DNA of 18,691 nucleotides from an uncultured archaeon (lineage in GTDB: Archaea > Asgardarchaeota > Lokiarchaeia > Sigyniarchaeales > SOKP01). The stretch is taken from the NCBI GenBank assembly GCA_964388035.1, contig CAYLZE010000102.1, positions 1 through 18,691 of the forward strand, written 5' to 3'. The position numbers and the translations under genes were made by a program. The notes below the pieces were generated by a model that was not told where the DNA came from, ran no database searches, and saw only the letters and a program-made list of their open reading frames with translations. Below, in pieces: positions 358 to 18,448 of this stretch. Numbering within the stretch: the stretch's first letter is position 1; each line of letters opens with the position of its first letter.

Positions 358-372
358 TATATAAAGAAAAAA
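358..372 (-). promoter_or_regulatory. Shared pyrimidine-tract/TATA motif TTTTTTCTTTATATA
   Basis: Reverse complement of tatataaagaaaaaa; about 48 nt upstream of ATG 310. Confidence 0.5.
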
Positions 373-580
373 TTCCAATTGATCGAAATAAAATGCTATA
401 TTATTCCTAAAATGTATTTCAAATTAATTTTTTTTTTAATAGCTTTGGTATATAAACATAATATAAATCCTGAATTGGTGATTTAAAATTAAAAAATGTA
501 AGTATCGTTCTCGCTGTAATTTTTTTGACAAAAATGGAATGACTTGTAACAAATTACAAGGAGAAGGATGTGGTAAAAAA

Positions 581-2399: not shown

Positions 2400-2413
2400 A
2401 TTTAAAAGAAAAA
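2400..2413 (-). promoter_or_regulatory. Shared motif TTTTTCTTTTAAAT
   Basis: About 60 nt upstream of ATG 2339, correct orientation. Confidence 0.5.
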
Positions 2414-4508: not shown

Positions 4509-4522
4509 ATATAAAGAAAAAA
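4509..4522 (-). promoter_or_regulatory. Shared motif TTTTTTCTTTATAT
   Basis: About 31 nt upstream of ATG 4477; back-to-back with the copy at 4551. Confidence 0.6.
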
Positions 4523-4550
4523 GTTCTAGCTTGCTGTTTCATGAAATAAA

Positions 4551-4565
4551 TTTTTTCTTTAAATA
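4551..4565 (+). promoter_or_regulatory. Shared motif TTTTTTCTTTAAATA
   Basis: 57 nt upstream of ATG 4623. Confidence 0.6.
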
Positions 4566-4889: not shown

Positions 4890-5429
4890 TCATTCCCTTG
4901 AAATTGTCTTGAAATGTAAAGAATATTGGTTATTATTGCTGGCTTCGATAATATTTTCTTTAAGTAATCGAGCAATCCATTCTTTAACTGTTAAAGTATC
5001 AAATTTTTCGCATATCATTTCAATAGAATATGCAGGAACCACATTAAAGGATTGAAAATGCAAGAAAATCTCTTTCTTTAGCTTAGAGTAATTTAAATCT
5101 TGTTCATTTTCGGTATTATTTTCAATTTTAAATGATAGAAAGGAGGACGATTTTTTTTGATACTGTCCCTTTGCCTTCAAGTCGGGATTTCCTCCCAATT
5201 GACTAATTGCTATTTGGTTCTGTCTTTTCTTTATCTCAAGAACTGCATTCGACATTCCATAAACCACAGATTCTTTTCTCACAGTAATTGTTTTAGAAAG
5301 AATTTTTGCTCCACACCGAGTACAAGTCTTGCTTTTATTTCCCTTTTTTAAATATAAAAAACCATTGCATCTCGGACAACTAAAAACATAATAAGGGGTG
5401 GTATCTTTAGTCCACCTTTTTTCTGTCAT
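4890..5429 (-). CDS. Zn-ribbon (DUF1922-like) protein with probable C-terminal winged helix
   Basis: YYVFSCPRCNGFLY...KSKTCTRCG four-Cys ribbon; C-terminal WIARLLKENIIEASNNNQYSL wHTH-like wing; ATGA overlap with the upstream gene. Confidence 0.75.
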   Translation of the reverse strand: MTEKRWTKDTTPYYVFSCPRCNGFLYLKKGNKSKTCTRCGAKILSKTITVRKESVVYGMSNAVLEIKKRQNQIAISQLGGNPDLKAKGQYQKKSSSFLSFKIENNTENEQDLNYSKLKKEIFLHFQSFNVVPAYSIEMICEKFDTLTVKEWIARLLKENIIEASNNNQYSLHFKTISRE

Positions 5430-6022
5430 GAAATTTGAACCTCAGTATCGCGAATTTTTAATATGGTAAGATTTTGATTAACTTTTTTATAAGAGAGCAA
5501 TTTTTGCCCCAATTCTAAGGCGAACTCGGAGGGATAATAGAGATCGTTGCCGTTTTTAAAGAATAAATAGGGATGGTTTGAAAATAATTGACATATTTTT
5601 TTATTTGCATCTTTTGAGGTTAGATCAAAGCCCACCCCTCTTCTAACTTGTTTAAATGAATAAACTACATCGTTTAATATGCAAGCTTCCTCTCTACATA
5701 TCTTGACTTTCTCAGGAACAAGGGCGGATGCTTCTCTAGTCTTTGGAGCTCTTTTCGTGGTCAAGACGAAATATTTAATAGCTCCTTGTTCTTTGATGTT
5801 AAGTTCATACCCCTCCAAGCATTCATATAAATATTGAAATTGAAGAACAAGTTCGATAATTTTTTCGATAATATTTGGAGGAAGTTCAAGGGCTTCTGCT
5901 AATTTGCTAAAATTCAATTTTTCTTGTTCATGGTCTTCAAATTTCGCCAAGGTCTCAATAATTTGATGCAGTTTAGTTAACACAGTTCCAAAGGAATTTC
6001 GAATTTGTTCTTGATCAGACAT
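5426..6022 (-). CDS. Hypothetical protein, probably one or two winged-helix domains
   Basis: KLNFSKLAEALELPPNIIEKIIEL is HTH-like; HPYLFFKNGNDLYYPSEFALEL is wing-like. Translationally coupled to 4890..5429. Confidence 0.7.
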   Translation of the reverse strand: MSDQEQIRNSFGTVLTKLHQIIETLAKFEDHEQEKLNFSKLAEALELPPNIIEKIIELVLQFQYLYECLEGYELNIKEQGAIKYFVLTTKRAPKTREASALVPEKVKICREEACILNDVVYSFKQVRRGVGFDLTSKDANKKICQLFSNHPYLFFKNGNDLYYPSEFALELGQKLLSYKKVNQNLTILKIRDTEVQIS

Positions 6023-6044: not shown

Positions 6045-6060
6045 TATATAAAGAAAAAAA
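6045..6060 (-). promoter_or_regulatory. Shared motif TTTTTTTCTTTATATA
   Basis: 22 nt upstream of ATG 6022, which fits a leaderless transcript. Confidence 0.65.
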
Positions 6061-6295: not shown

Positions 6296-7603
6296 TTAGG
6301 TGCATAAAATATGTGGAGGACCCGGAGGTCCTTTACCTGAAAAACTATAGATATTAAAATTATAATTAGGATTTGGTTCACTTCTTAATATCTTCGAACC
6401 TAGTTTCGAAGAATGAAAAATTTTTCTTTTTGGAGGGATAATTTCTGCAACAATTAAGGTCTCAAAAACAGAGAATATTATCAAGTGATTAGCAAAATCA
6501 GGCATACTTATTTCGTTTTTACTCTCTAATAGCCTTAATTTTGGAGTTATCTGAACCATGTTAGGATTCACATTTAAACTCATGCATTCTGCTTCTTGAA
6601 GAGCTGCATCTTCCTTGTTCTCTTCCGATTCTAACTTTTCAGAGGGATTTTCAATTATTCCCAATTTATCAAGGATTTGCGTGATGAGTTGAGAAGATGC
6701 TACCAAGCTGGTGAAGCCAGGCACGTTAAATTTCTCAATTATATTCTTTTTTACTTGCCCTTGAACGGTGGACATTCGAATGCCCACTTTATCACAGATC
6801 TGTGCTACACTTATTTTCTGTTTATAGTCAGGAGTGAGCACGATAACGCTGCAAGCAAGACCAGCGATGACTTCTTCCTTAGTGTTTTTGATAACTTCCC
6901 ATAAACGTTCCATGAAGGCAACTGCTTTATGATAAAATTCCATTCCCAAACCAAATTCTTTCACGGCATTCATTATTTTTTGCCGGCAATACATTTTTTT
7001 ATCCCTGAAGGCGCTGGACAATTCTTTTTCATGCCGAATAACTGTGAGAAGTGCCCCTTTCGACTCTTCTTTAGATAACTTGGAGTTCTCTAATAATTTG
7101 GTAAGGTTAATGGAGATCCCTTTTGATTTGCAAAAAACATAAATTACCGCGGGGACTAATTTTTCCATGTTTCTAAATTTCGTTCCTTTATCTAACTTAT
7201 TCCAAATTACTTTCACGGTCTTTAGAATTTCCAAATTTCGGGAAAAATTATGATATCCTAAGGTTTCCATTAAGCGCGAGATTTCTTGACGAGCCATCTC
7301 ATAGGAATTCTCCTCATTGGTTTTTGCAGTAATGTTTTGTAACTTATTTAATCGAATTATTTGGGGGGATCGAGAGGATCTCAGGCGCTCATGTTTAAAT
7401 CCTATTTGTGTTGTTTGTAACGGGGCGTTTTGTATCTTAACCTCATTATATGGCCGATGGTATTCTAACTTGGGAACTTCTAATACGATGCCGCAATTCC
7501 CGCATACATAACCCTGACTAGTTTCAATTATATTTGTGGATTTGCATGCATCACATGCTAATGTTTCTATTGGATCAAAATTTTTTTCAGTTTGGGAAGC
7601 CAT
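6296..7603 (-). CDS. tfb: Divergent transcription initiation factor IIB (TFB) paralogue with C-terminal extension, 435 aa
   Basis: Zn ribbon CDACKSTNIIETSQGYVCGNCG; two cyclin repeats (LVPAVIYVFCK; VIAGLACSVIV...SVAQICDKVGIRMSTVQ). Start moved from 7729 to ATG 7603 because a BRE-TATA lies at 7677-7663. Confidence 0.88.
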   Translation of the reverse strand: MASQTEKNFDPIETLACDACKSTNIIETSQGYVCGNCGIVLEVPKLEYHRPYNEVKIQNAPLQTTQIGFKHERLRSSRSPQIIRLNKLQNITAKTNEENSYEMARQEISRLMETLGYHNFSRNLEILKTVKVIWNKLDKGTKFRNMEKLVPAVIYVFCKSKGISINLTKLLENSKLSKEESKGALLTVIRHEKELSSAFRDKKMYCRQKIMNAVKEFGLGMEFYHKAVAFMERLWEVIKNTKEEVIAGLACSVIVLTPDYKQKISVAQICDKVGIRMSTVQGQVKKNIIEKFNVPGFTSLVASSQLITQILDKLGIIENPSEKLESEENKEDAALQEAECMSLNVNPNMVQITPKLRLLESKNEISMPDFANHLIIFSVFETLIVAEIIPPKRKIFHSSKLGSKILRSEPNPNYNFNIYSFSGKGPPGPPHILCT

Positions 7604-7662
7604 TTTTTTATCACAACTTTTTTTTCTAATTTTTCTAAGATCTATATGGGGGGGAGTGTGCC

Positions 7663-7677
7663 TTTTAAACTTTTCGG
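7663..7677 (-). promoter_or_regulatory. Canonical archaeal BRE-TATA promoter CCGAAAAG-TTTAAAA
   Basis: Purine-rich BRE directly before TTTAAA, about 60 nt upstream of ATG 7603. Confidence 0.6.
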
Positions 7678-8043
7678 TTTTGATATAATTTTCAGAATAA
7701 ATTATAATTATTAAACAAGTAGATACCATTCTTCAGAGAATACTGAACAATGTATTGGACAAAAAGGTCGAATGAAATTTCGTGGATCACTTTTCATCTT
7801 CACCCAAATATTAAAGTTCATTTAATAAAAAGAGAGTTTAAATACGTAATGGATATTAATTTTTAGAATAGTTATATATTCTTAAAAATCCCCCATTTTT
7901 AAAATGAGTTAATAATCTAGACGTTCAAGATCAAGAAATACTAAATGGGACTTAGAAGGGCTCTAAATGGCTTATAATCAAGTGCATGTATGTTTTTAAT
8001 AATTGATTGATCATTTTTCATCATAGAATCATAAAAATATCAC

Positions 8044-8057
8044 TTTTTTTTTAAATA
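8044..8057 (+). promoter_or_regulatory. Variant of shared motif (T9-AAATA, no C)
   Basis: 21 nt upstream of ATG 8079 (leaderless spacing). Confidence 0.5.
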
Positions 8058-8078: not shown

Positions 8079-8825
8079 ATGGAAGGATTGATTGAATTCT
8101 TAGTAATACAAAATATTTTAGCTTTTATTGTTATCGCGATTAGTTCGGGAATCATATCGCGAACCTTGCGTCATTACGATTTAGGGCCGTTTAATACGAT
8201 ATGTAATATATTAGGATTTATAGGCATTATAGTACATGAGCTCTCTCATTATATTATGAGTCTTTTAGTTGGAATTCCTCCCGCTAAAATTGAATTTACC
8301 TATCGATGGATGAATGGAAGTGTTTCTTATAAAAAAGGAACTCAAAAAAGCTTCTTACAAGGTTTCTTAACCTCACTAGCTCCTATTCTAATCATAACAT
8401 GGTTAATTTATATTTGTATTGGAGAACTAATTATTTCGGTTTCTCCTCTCCGATTTTTCTTTTTCTTATTCTTGACTATCTCTTTATTAGTAGGCGCAAG
8501 ACCCTCAAGCCGAGATTTAAAAAATTTGGTCTATTGGTTTAAAAACGATATCCGATATTCCTTCTATCAAATCTTCTTAGTAATGTTATCTTTAATATGG
8601 ACAAGTTCCATCTTTAATTTATTGCTCTCGTTATTTGAAGATACATGGTTTGTTATAAGTCTTTTTGTATCTCTTTTCCTTTTTTACTATTTAACCAAAT
8701 ATGTAATAAAAGGTATCGCTTACTTAATTATTTTAATAACTCATCGCTTTTCTTTGAGTCCTTTAGCAATCGCGATGAAAGAAAGTAAATTAACTCCAAT
8801 TAAGAGAAAAAGAACTGAATTTTAA
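8079..8825 (+). CDS. Membrane zinc metalloprotease, M50B/zincin-like
   Basis: GIIVHELSH (HExxH) next to a TM helix; GSV, SLAP and PSSRD motifs; multiple TM segments. Confidence 0.8.
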   Translation: MEGLIEFLVIQNILAFIVIAISSGIISRTLRHYDLGPFNTICNILGFIGIIVHELSHYIMSLLVGIPPAKIEFTYRWMNGSVSYKKGTQKSFLQGFLTSLAPILIITWLIYICIGELIISVSPLRFFFFLFLTISLLVGARPSSRDLKNLVYWFKNDIRYSFYQIFLVMLSLIWTSSIFNLLLSLFEDTWFVISLFVSLFLFYYLTKYVIKGIAYLIILITHRFSLSPLAIAMKESKLTPIKRKRTEF

Positions 8826-9916: not shown

Positions 9917-10003
9917 TAATTTAAAAAAATAAAGATACATTATTGGGAGCATCATTTTTGTGGGCATTCAGTGATTATAGTCCTTTTATCTGTTTATTGA
10001 GTC

Positions 10004-10017
10004 TTTTTTCTTTAAAT
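10004..10017 (+). promoter_or_regulatory. Shared motif TTTTTTCTTTAAAT
   Basis: About 70 nt upstream of FEN1 ATG 10087. Confidence 0.55.
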
Positions 10018-10086
10018 GGATGGGAAAAAGTTTCCTTAATAGCAACTAAGTTTTTTTATTATTACAAGACCGGAACATGGAATAAT

Positions 10087-11169
10087 ATGGGAGTAAAAAT
10101 TACAGAGCTTTTAAAATATCAGGACATTACTTTTTCTGACCTAGAAGGAAAAATAATTGCAGTGGATGCATCCAATATCTTGCTAAGTTTTCTCAATTTT
10201 TCTCCAAAAAATACGGATAATATATTTATTGATAAGACCCAGAGAGTCATCAATCATCTTTATGGCCTTTTATATCGAATTCATTTTTTTTATTCAATAA
10301 AGGTCTTACCTCTCTTTTGCTTTGACGGAAAGATTTCCGAATTAAAGCGGATTATTACTAAAGATCAACTGAATGACTATTTGTTTACAAAAAAAATGTA
10401 TCGAAATGCCATGAAAAGAGAGGATTATGCATCAGCCCGTCAAATTGCCATGAGCAAGGAGTTTTTATGGTCCAATGTTATAGAAGAGTCGAAAAAGTTG
10501 TTAAGTGGACTAGGGGTGCCTTATATAGAATCCCCTTCCTCTGCTGAAGCCCAATGTGCATATTTGGTTAAAAACCATCACGTGGACTATATGAACTCCC
10601 AGGACTTTGATTCTCTCCTGTTCGGAAGCCCTTATATGATACAAAATGTTTCCAAATCGCTTAAGAAAAAAGTACGAGGGCGCTGGACATATCAAAAGAT
10701 TCAACCAAAGCTATTTAATTTAGAGGATTGTTTAATTCACATGAATATCAATTACTTTCAATTTATAGATTTGGCCCTATTACTGAAAACCGATTACTTT
10801 CATGGAATTAAAGGCATCGGCCCACATAAAGCTTTGAAATTGATAAAATTGCATGGGTCAATCGAGAATTTAATAAAAAAAGAACAGAAAAACTATGACT
10901 TTAATGCCCTCTCTCCTTCCATTATTAAAGAAGTGAGGAAAATCTTCTTGTTTCCTGATGTCATAGATCCGGAAGCGGCATTCACCTGGACAGCTCCGAT
11001 TAGATTAGCTGTGCAACGTTTATTGTGCAAGGATCATCATTTAAATACTGAAAGAGTATATAAAAATTTAGATAAGTTGATTGAAAAATATCACGCTTGC
11101 ATTAAAAATTTTGAAGTATTAAGAGCTGAAAAAAAGAAAACTCAATTAACTTTGGACCAATTATTCTAA
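10087..11169 (+). CDS. fen: Flap endonuclease 1 (FEN1/XPG family) paralogue, 360 aa
   Basis: MGVKI start, IAVDA, FDGK, AEAQ, SQDFDSLLFG, TDY..GIKGIGP H3TH motif, C-terminal PIP box QLTLDQLF. Start reset to the family-typical MGV. Confidence 0.92.
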   Translation: MGVKITELLKYQDITFSDLEGKIIAVDASNILLSFLNFSPKNTDNIFIDKTQRVINHLYGLLYRIHFFYSIKVLPLFCFDGKISELKRIITKDQLNDYLFTKKMYRNAMKREDYASARQIAMSKEFLWSNVIEESKKLLSGLGVPYIESPSSAEAQCAYLVKNHHVDYMNSQDFDSLLFGSPYMIQNVSKSLKKKVRGRWTYQKIQPKLFNLEDCLIHMNINYFQFIDLALLLKTDYFHGIKGIGPHKALKLIKLHGSIENLIKKEQKNYDFNALSPSIIKEVRKIFLFPDVIDPEAAFTWTAPIRLAVQRLLCKDHHLNTERVYKNLDKLIEKYHACIKNFEVLRAEKKKTQLTLDQLF

Positions 11170-11432: not shown

Positions 11433-11447
11433 TTTTTTCTTTTTATA
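11433..11447 (+). promoter_or_regulatory. Variant of shared motif, TTTTTTCTTTTTATA
   Basis: About 87 nt upstream of TTG 11535. Confidence 0.4.
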
Positions 11448-13296: not shown

Positions 13297-13926
13297 TTAG
13301 GAAAGCTTACTTTTATTGATATTCAATTTGTTTCTTGCCTGATGAAATGCATAAGCTGAGGAATTGCAAAGCAAAATGATGTTATTCTGTACCAAGCATT
13401 TTTTATTTCCTTGCTGTACCGCAAGACTGCGCAGATCCGTTATAAAGACAATGAGTGCTAATTGGGTACTTAAGGTTGGCCAATAATTCATCTGAGTAAG
13501 TATTTTTAAAAGAGTCTCTGCATTTGTAAGAGCTCGCTCTAGGTTGAAGATGTCTGCAAAATCATGCATCATTTCCAAATATTCTTTTAGAAGAATTAGC
13601 CTGATTTGAAGTAATTCTTCTCTCGAACGTAATCGAGTGTTCAAAAAACAACATTGCATTTTTACGTTCTTTCTATAATATTCCTTAAACTTTTGCCATT
13701 GAAGCATGAATTCAGAGAAAATTGCTCCTATATCCTCAAATCTAAGTTTTTTTGGGATAAATGCATTTCGGATTTTTTCTAAAAGTAGTTCAAATATGGA
13801 GGTGGTTATTTTTTTATCTAGAAAGCTCGTTTCCCTGAAAATGTAATTTATTATCTGTTTTTTCAATTGAGGATCAAATTTCTTTTCCTTTTCAGTAAGA
13901 AAAATGTCCCTTTCTAATGTACTCAT
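13297..13926 (-). CDS. Hypothetical protein with TFIIB-like cyclin-fold C-terminus, no Zn ribbon (about 209 aa)
   Basis: WPTLSTQLALIVFITD...LVQNNIILLCNSSAYAFHQARNKL resembles TFB repeat 2 (P.GxAAAxxYxA...TQxxIAxxxxVxxxTIRxxxKxL). ATG 13926 preferred over TTG 13974. Confidence 0.6.
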   Translation of the reverse strand: MSTLERDIFLTEKEKKFDPQLKKQIINYIFRETSFLDKKITTSIFELLLEKIRNAFIPKKLRFEDIGAIFSEFMLQWQKFKEYYRKNVKMQCCFLNTRLRSREELLQIRLILLKEYLEMMHDFADIFNLERALTNAETLLKILTQMNYWPTLSTQLALIVFITDLRSLAVQQGNKKCLVQNNIILLCNSSAYAFHQARNKLNINKSKLS

Positions 13927-13976
13927 TTCTCTCAGTTCTAAGATAATGATTAATTGAAAGAAAATTAGATCCAAAG

Positions 13977-13991
13977 TATTTAAAAGAAAAA
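13977..13991 (-). promoter_or_regulatory. Shared motif TTTTTCTTTTAAATA
   Basis: 50 nt upstream of ATG 13926. Confidence 0.55.
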
Positions 13992-14043
13992 GCGATTGGA
14001 ACTTTTAAAAAAAAAATGATAAGTAAAGAGAGAAAAAAATCAT

Positions 14044-15274: not shown

Positions 15275-15335
15275 AATATTTAAAGAAAAAATTAGACCCA
15301 ATTTGAATGAACTTAATAATTTTTCTTTAAATATT
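15275..15335. promoter_or_regulatory. Back-to-back copies of the shared motif forming a perfect 16-bp inverted repeat (TTTTTCTTTAAATATT)
   Basis: AATATTTAAAGAAAAA at 15275-15290 and TTTTTCTTTAAATATT at 15320-15335, each facing one divergent gene. Confidence 0.7.
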
Positions 15336-15354: not shown

Positions 15355-16077
15355 GTGAAAGAGATGGATCAACATTCATATAATTTTTTTGGACAAAAAA
15401 CCGCTCTTTTTTTTAATTCTCCTTCGAAATTTGATTCTCACGTGTTCTTTAGGGTGATAAAAAAGAAAAATAATGAAACGTGGGAAAAACCTTCCCAAGG
15501 GGAGGGAGTAATAATACGATTATCCTTGGAAGAACAAGTTCAAGTATTAGACGTCCTCGAACAGAAGGCGGACTCATGGAGTGGATATCATAAGTATAAA
15601 GGAAATGGAACGCCCATAAAAGTTGCCTGGAAAAAGGACAAGGAGCCGGAAAAAAATACTATTTGGATTAATATCGGGAATTATTCCAAAATGTTGAGTG
15701 CTCCTGAAATTCAGATTCTTAAAATGTTAATGAGTCATATTTTAGAGGAAAAGATTGCATTTGCTACTTTTTCAAAAAAAAATCCCCAACAAAGTAAAAG
15801 ATCAAATAATAAGGAGCTAAGTTCATTAAAAGAAGCCCCTTCTGAACACCAAGACGCATCTTCGTCATCCACGATTACTTCTAAAAAAAGACCTCCATCT
15901 TATAATGAGTTTACCTGCTTGACTGAAAAAGGCAGAATCTTGCGGGAATATGATGATTGTGTGGAAATTCAATTTATAACCGGAGAGATCAAGAAAATAC
16001 CTCTTGAAGCTATTAAATCTCCATTTAATAGAAACATGAACGTACAAGAATTTTCTTATGATTCTTCCATCATATAA
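15355..16077 (+). CDS. Candidate Whirly/PC4-superfamily single-stranded nucleic-acid-binding protein with extra C-terminal domain
   Basis: Duplicated strands-then-helix pattern: GQKTAL...W...IIRLSLEE...YH...KMLSAPEIQILK. ATG 15364 is an alternative start. The CDS is solid; the fold call is tentative. Confidence 0.6.
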   Translation: MKEMDQHSYNFFGQKTALFFNSPSKFDSHVFFRVIKKKNNETWEKPSQGEGVIIRLSLEEQVQVLDVLEQKADSWSGYHKYKGNGTPIKVAWKKDKEPEKNTIWINIGNYSKMLSAPEIQILKMLMSHILEEKIAFATFSKKNPQQSKRSNNKELSSLKEAPSEHQDASSSSTITSKKRPPSYNEFTCLTEKGRILREYDDCVEIQFITGEIKKIPLEAIKSPFNRNMNVQEFSYDSSII

Positions 16078-18399: not shown

Positions 18400-18414
18400 T
18401 ATATAAAAAAAAAA
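18400..18414 (-). promoter_or_regulatory. Variant of shared motif (T10-ATATA, no C)
   Basis: About 58 nt upstream of rpa ATG 18341. Confidence 0.4.
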
Positions 18415-18431
18415 CATCCTCTTCAAGATCC

Positions 18432-18448
18432 TTTTTTCTTTAAATATT
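18432..18448 (+). promoter_or_regulatory. Shared motif TTTTTTCTTTAAATATT
   Basis: Contains the same 16-mer as 15320-15335; 48 nt upstream of ATG 18497. Confidence 0.65.

Follow-up and report, generated by a model that had tools for sequence, protein, structure and literature searches.

In archaea, the contact between TFB and the BRE sets the polarity of transcription. TFB3 of the Sulfolobales functions in the DNA-damage response (Ups pili, Ced DNA import); it is a truncated protein without the DNA-reading part and works together with TFB1 as a co-activator. Haloarchaea reportedly possess families of TFB paralogues, several per genome, that divide promoters among them. To our knowledge, none of the haloarchaeal paralogues has been described with a strand-swapped BRE and corresponding Arg-to-Gln changes. 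Alternative TFBs that control gene sets of their own are already known, and the promoters studied differ only subtly from housekeeping ones. TFB2 of Sulfolobus acidocaldarius is a full-length paralogue that is found beside the housekeeping TFB, occupies and drives cell-division promoters and targets its own promoter; TFB1 and TFB2 promoters have similar BREs and differ in BRE-TATA spacing alone (bioRxiv 10.64898/2026.09.06.749720). Asgard viruses and mobile genetic elements carry extra TFB genes, which are proposed to redirect host transcription (bioRxiv 10.1101/2021.07.29.453957; PMC13700489).

The window analysed here is the whole of an 18.7-kb contig (C102) from an uncultured lokiarchaeial archaeon. 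It carries the gene for P0002, a protein of the TFB/TFIIB family that is complete although highly divergent, and about 15 of its transcription units have T-rich elements in place of the BRE. The protein is proposed to be an island-specific transcription initiation factor that would read a T6-C element through an altered recognition helix, in the manner of an alternative sigma factor, and the probability of this role is put at roughly 0.55. No published description of such a system, a divergent TFB with an island of T-tract promoters, was found. The new aspect of the locus is that another element stands in place of the BRE and that the BRE-reading residues have changed in step. Thus, the sequences could reveal a specificity rule, and a small set of proteins and oligonucleotides would suffice to test it. 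The features of the locus are listed in Table 1.

Table 1. Positions of the divergent TFB gene, its parts and the promoters in the 18.7-kb window
Feature	Position	Strand	Remarks
Divergent TFB-family gene P0002	6296..7603	-	Stop codon 6296-6298; assigned by homology and fold
Zn ribbon, C17-x2-C20 ... C34-x2-C37	7493..7555	-	Four Cys invariant in 50 relatives
Linker in the B-reader/B-linker place	7379..7474	-	Family-specific motif LEYHRPY..Q.APL..TQIG.K.ER, conserved columns
Cyclin repeat 1, about residues 92-198	7010..7330	-	pLDDT about 95; VIA alignment to 1d3u_B
Cyclin repeat 2, about residues 202-315	6659..7000	-	Houses the HTH; AF2 model, VIA alignment
Recognition helix R276-K292, RMSTVQGQVKKNIIEK	6728..6778	-	Aligned with canonical TE[VA]T[IL]RNRYK
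C-terminal extension, residues 320-435	6299..6646	-	Poorly conserved; one helix and four short strands predicted, low confidence
K424-G-P-P427 near the C-terminus	6323..6334	-	K[G/D]PP kept in nearly all orthologues
Own core promoter	7653..7677	-	Purine BRE CCGAAAAG 7677-7670, TATA TTTAAAAG 7669-7662, ACACTCC box 7659-7653
Conserved CTTAG	7635..7639	-	About 30 nt 3' of TATA start; probable start-site region, position deduced
16-nt element AAGTGATCCACGAAAT	7777..7792	-	About 115 nt 5' of TATA; common to the C27 duplicate; possible regulator site
T-tract/TATA promoter	8044..8057	+	Divergently transcribed membrane-protein gene 8079-8825
T-tract/TATA promoter	6045..6060	-	Operon 5426-6022 / 4890-5429, just 3' of the TFB-like gene
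Back-to-back T-tract/TATA pair	4509..4565		4509-4522(-) HHH membrane protein; 4551-4565(+) 88-aa ORF
Back-to-back T-tract/TATA pair	15275..15335		15275-15291(-) operon of 180-aa ORF and Arf-like GTPase; 15320-15335(+) gene 15355-16077
Back-to-back T-tract/TATA pair	18400..18448		18400-18414(-) OB-fold protein; 18432-18448(+)
T-tract/TATA promoter	11433..11447	+	582-aa island marker gene
Further T-tract/TATA copies	358-372(-), 428-441(+), 2400-2413(-), 10004-10017(+), 13977-13991(-), 14003-14016(-)		

The coding sequence of P0002 specifies 435 aa and lies inside a longer open reading frame (6296-7729, minus strand). The ATG at 7603 is the most likely start because a GTGAT Shine-Dalgarno sequence is found at 7614-7610, the N-terminus MASQT is common to the orthologues and the promoter of the gene falls inside the longer frame. 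A sequence-only reading of this DNA had given the gene the span 6296-7677; the gene itself stands, but 7677 belongs to the promoter and the coding sequence ends at 7603.

Sequence alone is insufficient to place the protein, as its profile finds only weak TFIIB matches among PDB sequences (E 0.03). The Pfam TFIIB model PF00382 misses it (13.3 bits, cut-off 23.6 bits), and its match to NCBIfam PRK00423 (E 1.3e-6) is far under the 384-bit cut-off of that model. Comparison by hhalign of the P0002 family with the 12 canonical TFBs of the genome gives a probability of 97.9% (E 5.8e-13) over residues 32-286. The best Foldseek and VIA matches of the AF2 model are TFB/TFIIB. The model superimposes on Pyrococcus 1d3u_B, which is bound to TBP and DNA, with a Z of 18.1 and an rmsd of 2.5 Å over 198 of 201 residues, and human TFIIB cores follow at Z 16-17. 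The core has a pLDDT of about 95 and its two cyclin-fold repeats are placed as in the TBP-DNA-bound core. Clear homology combined with scores below the cut-offs makes P0002 a superfamily-level member that lies outside the curated family models. In a TFB phylogeny, the island TFBs of both host families form one clade (100/100 support) and the P0002 family groups with lokiarchaeial sequences only, in a tree where a long branch could artificially attract divergent sequences.

The modules of a working TFB all have counterparts, with a putative one for the B-reader/B-linker. The Zn ribbon matches PF08271 below the cut-off (E 4e-4) and ribbon strands are seen at residues 25-34 of the model. The linker segment is strongly conserved within the family and aligns loosely with PEWRAF ... 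GAP ... GLST of canonical TFBs; its motif differs and the pLDDT there is <60. The invariant cysteines of the ribbon and the family-invariant residues of this reader/linker-like segment argue for a working polymerase contact rather than a decoy. The structural match to the TFB/TFIIB core stops at about residue 307-320, leaving a tail of about 115 aa that ends GKGPPGPPHILCT, close to the extension of about 110 aa first noticed. K[G/D]PP is the only conserved sequence in the tail, for which an atlas look-up returned no usable match, and within this genome a K[G/D]PP end is limited to the two family members. The tail and K[G/D]PP play no part in the proposed model. The predicted complex of core and tail with the TBP of the genome scored 0.02 in a run without controls, which counts neither for nor against the model. 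P0002 is not the main TFB of the organism, as the genome holds 12 canonical TFBs, all of which keep R-x-R and have no tail, together with one TBP gene.

The HTH of the second repeat (S265-K286, SVAQICDKVGIRMSTVQGQVKK, window 6746-6811) is modelled as a helix at residues 266-273, a turn and a helix at 277-292. The helix reads M-S-T-V-Q-G-Q-V: both canonical arginines are glutamines (Gln281, Gln283), the preceding Glu is Met, and the conserved BRE-contacting T-E-V-T-x-R-x-R-Y set of canonical archaeal TFBs is absent. The change is a family trait, with MST[IV]QxQ[VI] where canonical TFBs have TE[VA]T[IL]RNRY. In an alignment of 50 sequences, the M is kept in 45, the S in 49, the T in 46, the first Q in 39 (H in 7, N in 4) and the second Q in 46. 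An alternative TFB with a rewritten BRE-recognition helix, as claimed from the sequence at the outset, is therefore what the gene encodes.

A T6-C-TTTAAATA motif is present 5' of about 15 transcription units on the contig, where it is about 15-fold enriched relative to the rest of the genome; matches elsewhere show no orientation bias. The pattern TTTTYTTTWWAWA is found 14 times in the window, where 1.45 occurrences are expected, and 0 of 200 shuffles reach this count. PWM matches number 0.91 per kb on the contig and about 0.055 per kb in the rest of the genome. Both the PWM and the patterns were built from this window or the regions described, and only their rarity elsewhere tests them independently. 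On the contig, 10 PWM matches lie sense-upstream of a gene and 2 are antisense-only; the corresponding numbers elsewhere are 41 and 55, which marks the motif as noise outside the island. Five of the six strict TATA boxes on the contig are preceded by pyrimidines, whereas only 20 of 296 elsewhere are pyrimidine-rich upstream and 40 of 296 are purine-rich. The pyrimidine-BRE motif noticed from the letters is thus specific to the island. The T-run occupies the exact BRE position and is the sole conserved asymmetry beside a near-palindromic TATA. The T-runs were also considered as terminators, which was rejected since many copies are located between divergent genes. The island extends beyond the window, as a second contig (C40) has more T-tract promoters. 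Its cargo includes RadA-like, Hef-like helicase, FEN1-like and OB-fold proteins, membrane and surface proteins, and an Arf-like GTPase beside a 180-aa ORF.

The promoter of the TFB gene itself is of the other type, as had been claimed. It lies 59 nt 5' of the ATG (CCGAAAAG-TTTAAAAG, 7677-7662), and its purine BRE and TATA are kept in about 25 orthologues. None of the T-tract matches in the window is directed at the P0002 gene, which fits a two-tier order. The promoter is probably regulated, as suggested by the conserved ACTCC box and the upstream elements. An exact 25-nt duplicate of the core promoter is found at G000:C27:39934-39958; 3' of it there is no Rfam match and tblastn finds no family-gene remnant. 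The second family copy in the genome, on contig C42, is without the conserved own-promoter, which counts against the role proposed for P0002.

In the proposed mechanism, P0002 would be made from its conventional purine-BRE/TATA promoter, itself probably regulated, and would join the single TBP of the cell at the TATA boxes of the accessory island. The altered helix, with Gln-x-Gln for Arg-x-Arg, would then read the T6-C element at the BRE position. This contact would set the direction of transcription and recruit RNA polymerase, so that the island genes are activated in the second tier of a putative cascade. The initial reading of the locus is thus supported in part: P0002 is a dedicated alternative TFB, and its place as master regulator, with its gene transcribed by a housekeeping TFB, is putative.

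The factor and its island are linked in other genomes. Among 70 family genomes, 37 have both the TFB and the 582-aa island marker, 10 have the TFB only, 8 have the marker without a full-length TFB and 15 have neither. The two genes are on one contig, 5-25 kb apart, in 16 genomes. At least one motif match is present within ±1.5 kb at 24 of 32 orthologue loci. The strict motif clusters at the gene in G192 (5 of 22 matches within 17 kb) and G207 (6 of 26 within 16 kb), as does the loose motif in G147 (7 of 77 within 40 kb). The total number of loose-motif matches in a genome fails to distinguish carriers from non-carriers; clustering alone tells them apart. An exception is G159 (99% complete, 240 contigs), which has 26 strict matches against 11 in the control and a 14-kb patch with 7 PWM matches around a homologue of an island gene; it yielded no family member at E <= 1e-12, and none in the patch. 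The contig ends at the patch, so the family gene may simply be unassembled.

The helix and the promoter differ again in a sister family. In the closed genome G326 the helix is ASTVYSH, the promoters are T8-G-[CT]-TTTTATAA and all three ATAA-type matches lie within 12 kb of the gene. In G331 the helix is ASTVYTR and Y-C-C stands ahead of the TATA. These genomes support a joint change of helix and promoter element in the sister clade, in a comparison that spans three clades with few promoters each and related genomes that are non-independent. Two queries found no long divergent TFB in another sister-family genome, G213 (closed, 4.4 Mb).

These data also bear on whether something else reads the T-rich element. 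Another DNA-binding protein of the island is one candidate, such as the Zn-ribbon protein encoded at 4890-5429, or the T-run might assist TBP simply as a bendable A/T stretch; P0002 would then be a TFB3-like co-activator, a factor that competes or represses by occupying TBP, or one that serves only a few promoters. Binding of the T-tract by P0002 is a prediction, and G159 has T-tract promoters without a detectable family member. Co-occurrence of the TFB with the island marker is imperfect, and the tail with its conserved K[G/D]PP may point to partner binding, for which the simple model has no use. This alternative is nevertheless unlikely. P0002 keeps the Zn ribbon, the reader/linker-like segment and every other module of a working TFB, whereas TFB3 is truncated. 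Its changes are concentrated and conserved at DNA-reading positions and differ again where the promoter element differs. The polarity of the promoters requires an asymmetric reader at the BRE position, and a search by hhalign of TFB profiles against all other proteins of the contig found no second TFB-like protein.

Less likely still is that the island is a mobile element (an integrative element, plasmid or provirus) and P0002 its take-over initiation factor, by the mechanism proposed above but in the service of the element rather than the host. The distribution of the family is patchy: 47 of the 70 family genomes contain a full-length copy, copy numbers range from 1 to 5 per genome, and stop codons are present in many fragments. 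Yet gene order around the factor is kept across at least seven genera, and in the tree the island TFBs follow the two host families, which fits long vertical residence. An IS66 transposase and a group II intron RT adjoin one orthologue; no integrase, capsid or replication-initiator gene was seen in the window or on C40. Promoter usage is unlike that of the host and TFB homologues are reported in Asgard viruses and mobile elements (bioRxiv 10.1101/2021.07.29.453957; PMC13700489), but no relative of P0002 was found among IMG/VR viral contigs, and among PHROGs its neighbours have no match and the TFB itself one weak match.

That the contig is a mis-binned piece of an organism with ordinarily T-rich promoters and P0002 as its normal TFB is rejected as highly improbable: the bin has a contamination estimate of 7.3%, the window is an entire contig and C42 holds a second copy, 42% identical, whose neighbours are syntenic, but several copies are found in genomes of about 10 contigs or fewer (three in G210, four in G309), the motif is confined to 30-40 kb around the gene in G192, G207 and the 10-contig G147 rather than genome-wide, canonical TFBs occur alongside in every family genome searched (5-34 first-look candidates each, counts not individually checked), and the GC content of 31.3% is inside the range of the bin.

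If P0002 is an island-specific initiation factor, a wider and more tentative proposal is that Lokiarchaeia possess a second promoter code, in which a TFIIB-family factor with Gln for Arg reads a strand-swapped BRE (T6-C in the place of the complementary purine-rich bases of housekeeping promoters) and factor and element co-evolve between families. The code might switch on and off a programme of recombination, membrane and surface genes, possibly including intercellular DNA exchange, with the K[G/D]PP tail as a docking or turnover signal. The cargo, which combines a second set of recombination tools with membrane and surface proteins, points to such a programme, as yet undescribed, in organisms that are now cultured.

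Compared with archaeal TFB/TFIIB (Pyrococcus woesei TFBc-TBP-BRE/TATA, PDB 1D3U and 1AIS), P0002 has the same architecture of Zn ribbon, linker-like segment, two cyclin repeats and repeat-2 HTH at an identity of 11-14%. It differs in Q-x-Q for R-x-R and M for E, in a rewritten reader/linker motif, in an additional tail of about 115 aa that finishes with K[G/D]PP, and in the associated promoters, which carry T6-C in place of a purine-rich BRE. TFB2 of S. acidocaldarius is the best experimental precedent for an alternative-sigma-like TFB, whereas P0002 is known from sequence and a model; here the element is replaced and the reading helix changed, and the P0002 gene has a promoter of the ordinary type. 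TFB3 is likewise a paralogue tied to DNA repair and exchange genes, and the island cargo is similar in flavour, but TFB3 has no reader or DNA-binding second repeat whereas P0002 is complete, with both repeats and its own altered HTH. The haloarchaeal paralogues are ordinary in sequence and length. Compared with the TFBs of viruses and mobile elements, no member of the P0002 family was found in IMG/VR contigs, and no virus or plasmid hallmark genes are seen alongside it.

The eukaryotic factors Brf1/Brf2 and Rrn7/TAF1B resemble P0002 in having a TFIIB-like core, a long extension at the C-terminus and a promoter class of their own. The Brf1 and Brf2 cores match the P0002 model at Z 13-15.8; the P0002 tail, whose model is of low confidence, has no detected similarity to the Brf homology blocks. 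A single RNA polymerase is involved here, in contrast to the eukaryotic factors, and the kin of P0002 in the tree are lokiarchaeial only. The Asgard archaea are the closest relatives of eukaryotes, and for the three polymerase systems of eukaryotes the division of promoters among TFIIB-like factors was a founding event. A second promoter code, if true, would be a prokaryotic precedent, in the closest archaeal relatives, for class-specific, tail-bearing TFIIB-like factors such as Brf1 and Rrn7.

The window's promoters depart from those of the rest of its genome, a Loki-type (Promethearchaeota) Asgard MAG of 5.47 Mb (96.7% complete, 7.3% contamination) in which the window is the whole of contig C102. 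The element T5-7-C-TTT(A/T)(A/T)AT(A) precedes, and points at, about 15 transcription units on C102, and the pattern TTTTYTTTWWAWA occurs 14 times in the window against 1.45 expected, a count of at least 14 being reached in 0 of 200 shuffles. C102 ranks first in motif density among 211 contigs. It carries 11 of the genome's 209 strict-pattern matches on 0.34% of the DNA, and a PWM finds 0.91 hits per kb there versus about 0.055 per kb elsewhere. On C102 10 PWM hits are sense-upstream and 2 antisense, whereas outside it the numbers are 41 and 55; this lack of orientation bias suggests that most hits outside the contig are noise. Genes in the rest of the genome have an A-rich sense strand upstream. 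The T-run comprises exactly the seven bases ahead of TATA, which is the BRE position, and approximates the complement of a purine BRE such as that of the factor gene itself (CGAAAAG-TTTAAAAG). Terminators were considered as an explanation for the T-runs and rejected because many copies lie back to back between divergent genes. On C40 small additional motif clusters precede the genes for a RadA-like protein that carries an HhH domain, for a Hef-like helicase and for a surface protein of 1605 aa; others, on C42, surround a second copy of the TFB-like gene.

Some of the promoters bear on the annotation of the window's cargo. For the FEN1-like gene the annotated TTG start is probably incorrect, since a T-tract promoter lies inside the frame, and translation likely begins at a downstream Met (MGVKITELL...). 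C76 encodes another FEN1, of the housekeeping type and 35% identical to this one. The listed TTG start of another gene is doubtful because it is abutted by the proximal member of a tandem T-tract/TATA pair spaced 26 nt apart. The 179-aa product of the operon next to the TFB-like gene could bind nucleic acid; the closest relative's locus (L013) lacks this operon at the corresponding position.

P0002, the 435-aa product of the TFB-like gene, is a genuine TFB-family member that has strongly diverged. Domain models barely recognize it: the TFIIB Zn ribbon is matched in Pfam only below threshold, the Pfam TFIIB repeat model gives 13.3 bits (cut-off 23.6), and the NCBIfam TFIIB match is weak (E 1.3e-6; model cut-off 384 bits). 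Its family membership follows from structural and profile-profile matches. An AlphaFold2 model based on a 50-sequence alignment (mean pLDDT 76.7, about 95 across residues 100-320) shows a Zn ribbon joined by a poorly ordered linker to two cyclin repeats, followed by a tail of low confidence. Among known structures the model comes closest to Pyrococcus woesei TFBc as bound to TBP and BRE/TATA DNA (1d3u_B; Z 18.1, rmsd 2.5 Å, 198/201 residues); human TFIIB is tied with TFBc, at most 1 Z unit apart, and Brf1 and Brf2 reach about 15 and 13. Residues 32-286 match the genome's 12 canonical TFBs with 97.9% probability (E 5.8e-13). All four Zn-ribbon cysteines are invariant in the family, and the B-reader/B-linker position holds a strongly conserved family-specific motif, LEYHRPY..Q.APL..TQIG.K.ER, taken as a sign that P0002 may still engage RNA polymerase.

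The sequence-only reading had proposed that the BRE-recognition helix of P0002 is rewritten, and both hhalign and MAFFT pair the canonical G-V-T-E-[VA]-T-[IL]-R-N-R-Y-K with G-I-R-M-S-T-V-Q-G-Q-V-K. R-x-R, whose two arginines reportedly contact the BRE in TFB and TFIIB (1D3U and 1C9B), is kept in 12/12 canonical TFBs of the genome. Among 50 relatives of P0002 the helix has, in order, M in 45, S in 49, T in 46, Q in 39 (H in 7, N in 4), a variable residue and Q in 46; the proposal is thus right, and the altered helix characterizes the family. The long C-terminal extension is likewise present, at residues 320-435, whereas all 12 canonical TFBs end 12-20 residues past the helix. It is modeled with low confidence as one helix and four short strands, and is unconserved except for a K-[G/D]-P-P end, 3-9 residues from the C-terminus and preceded by aromatic residues, in nearly every orthologue. 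KGPP near the C-terminus is confined in the source genome to the two family members, and a sister-family genus has S-P-P instead. As a guess, K-[G/D]-P-P might be a docking or turnover signal.

P0002 is not the only or main TFB, as the genome has 12 canonical TFB genes with two repeats, some divergent TFB genes (a few) and one TBP gene. Many relatives in the same order have matches for 2-4 TBP genes. The second family member, on C42, has neighbors paralogous to those of the window copy; part of the promoters in this mini-island are of the T-tract type, and the family copy there lacks the conserved own-promoter. A divergent TFB-like protein on C26 has a very long branch and falls outside the P0002 family. 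Within the phylum the P0002 family is limited to a single taxonomic family (53/68 genomes; essentially none elsewhere at E <= 1e-10), with 1-5 copies per genome, many fragments with stop codons, and 166 matches at E <= 1e-30 in a library of 50%-identity cluster representatives. Related long TFBs occur in some genera of a sister family. In a TFB phylogeny the island TFBs from the two taxonomic families group as a single clade (100/100 support) on a long branch away from all canonical paralogues, a grouping that may owe something to long-branch attraction.

The P0002 gene most probably starts at an internal ATG, judging from GTGAT just ahead of it and the N-terminus MASQT common to orthologues, and the promoter named in the sequence-only reading falls within the longer frame. 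That promoter is indeed of the purine-BRE/TATA rather than the T-rich type, and about 25 orthologues from many genera, with proteins that share just 35-55% identity, preserve its layout. No T-tract motif pointing at the TFB-like gene was found on C102, which fits the proposed two-tier cascade and hints that the first tier is under regulation too. The promoter's 25-nt core (CCGAAAAGTTTAAAAGGCACACTCC) has exactly one other genomic copy, on C27, and both copies share the 16-mer AAGTGATCCACGAAAT about 105-115 nt upstream. Downstream of the C27 copy no ORF, family-gene remnant or Rfam match was found; about 180 nt follow, ending in a GC hairpin and T-run (fold z -3.0). The C27 site may be a relic promoter, or else a small RNA that escaped annotation and shares the first-tier control of the TFB-like gene.

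Positions of features in the window and at related loci
Feature	Contig	Position	Strand	Details
Two-gene operon directly downstream of TFB-like gene	window	4890-6022		T-tract promoter; 198-aa protein, no family; 179-aa protein, DUF1922-type Zn ribbon
ORF of P0002	window	6296-7729	minus	most probable start ATG 7603; GTGAT 7614-7610
K-[G/D]-P-P of P0002	window	6323-6334	minus	
Own core promoter	window	7677-7662	minus	CCGAAAAG-TTTAAAAG
ACACTCC	window	7659-7653		downstream of core promoter
CTTAG	window	7639-7635		followed by Shine-Dalgarno
FEN1-like nuclease gene	window	9943-11169		
T-tract promoter in FEN1-like frame	window	10004-10017		
Gene behind tandem pair	window	13297-13974		
Tandem T-tract/TATA pair	window	13977-14016		
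Other cargo	window			RadB/KaiC-like ATPase; OB-fold protein; HhH membrane protein; MFS transporter; Arf-like GTPase adjoining 180-aa ORF (no Pfam match)
Divergent TFB-like protein	G000:C26	4727-5746		339 aa; hhalign 98% to canonical TFBs; helix IAEYSIRDHY
Copy of own-promoter core	G000:C27	39934-39958		
Region of that copy	G000:C27	39826-40160		L102:826-1160
Second, paralogous mini-island	G000:C42	23500-36000		L100, L101; paralogues of 354-aa and 114-aa window proteins; 256-aa solo TFIIB-repeat-like protein (hhalign 92% to canonical TFBs); canonical TFB; 1315-aa surface protein
Family copy in mini-island	G000:C42	26625-27866		413 aa; 42% identity to P0002
Contig end in relative	G159:C136	4001-18120		L103; 14 kb

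Co-occurrence of the clade with the motif was tested across genomes. At 24/32 orthologue loci the window-derived PWM has one or more sites in the ±1.5 kb around the gene (0.28 per kb), and several genomes show motif hits concentrated near the gene: 5/22 strict hits lie within 17 kb in G192, 6/26 within 16 kb in G207, two each near the gene in G204 and G083, and 7/77 loose hits within 40 kb in G147. With the 582-aa window protein as island marker, the 70 genomes of the taxonomic family divide into 37 with both factor and marker, 10 with the factor alone, 8 with the marker alone (2 of them with truncated factor copies) and 15 with neither; in 16 genomes factor and marker share a contig, at a distance of 5-25 kb, and five near-complete genomes without the factor also lack the marker. 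Against this, the 99%-complete relative G159 has the promoters (26 strict hits versus 11 in the control, and, at a contig end, 7 T-tract PWM hits that surround a gene for a homologue of the 354-aa island protein), and its whole assembly yielded no family member. Either its factor gene is unassembled or T-tract promoters can exist without the factor.

Helix and promoter element also appear to co-vary between clades. In the closed sister-family genome G326 the helix is E-I-T-A-S-T-V-Y-S-H, the neighbors' promoters read T8-G-[CT]-TTTTATAA, and all 3 ATAA-type matches in the genome are found no farther than 12 kb from the gene. G331, also of the sister family, has G-V-S-A-S-T-V-Y-T-R and Y-C-C ahead of TATA. 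In G147, a divergent representative of the family to which the window belongs, the helix reads M-S-T-I-N-Y-Q and the pre-TATA base is often A, not C. Since few clades and few promoters are involved, the co-variation is suggestive only.

The favored reading, with a probability of about 0.55, is that P0002 is an island-specific initiation factor that would be produced from a conventional, regulated promoter, pair with the cell's single TBP and read the T-run of the island promoters through its Gln-bearing helix. That another protein reads the T-run and P0002 has a different role is unlikely, though it is the strongest of the rivals. A mobile-element nature of the island, with P0002 as its take-over factor, is less likely still; virus or integrase evidence was looked for and not found, and the TFBs of Asgard viruses and MGEs have been reported, not characterised (bioRxiv 10.1101/2021.07.29.453957; PMC13700489). 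A binning artefact is highly improbable, as several family copies also occur in genomes assembled into about 10 contigs, so the paralogy is real.

The observation of an alternative-TFB system is well supported, and the mechanism is plausible but unproven. A literature search found no paper describing the P0002 family or the T-rich promoter class. TFB3 is truncated, and the closest experimental analogue of P0002 is TFB2 of S. acidocaldarius. TFB2 occupies division-gene promoters, and its system differs from the present one in that the BREs look similar and only the BRE-TATA spacing differs (bioRxiv 10.64898/2026.09.06.749720).
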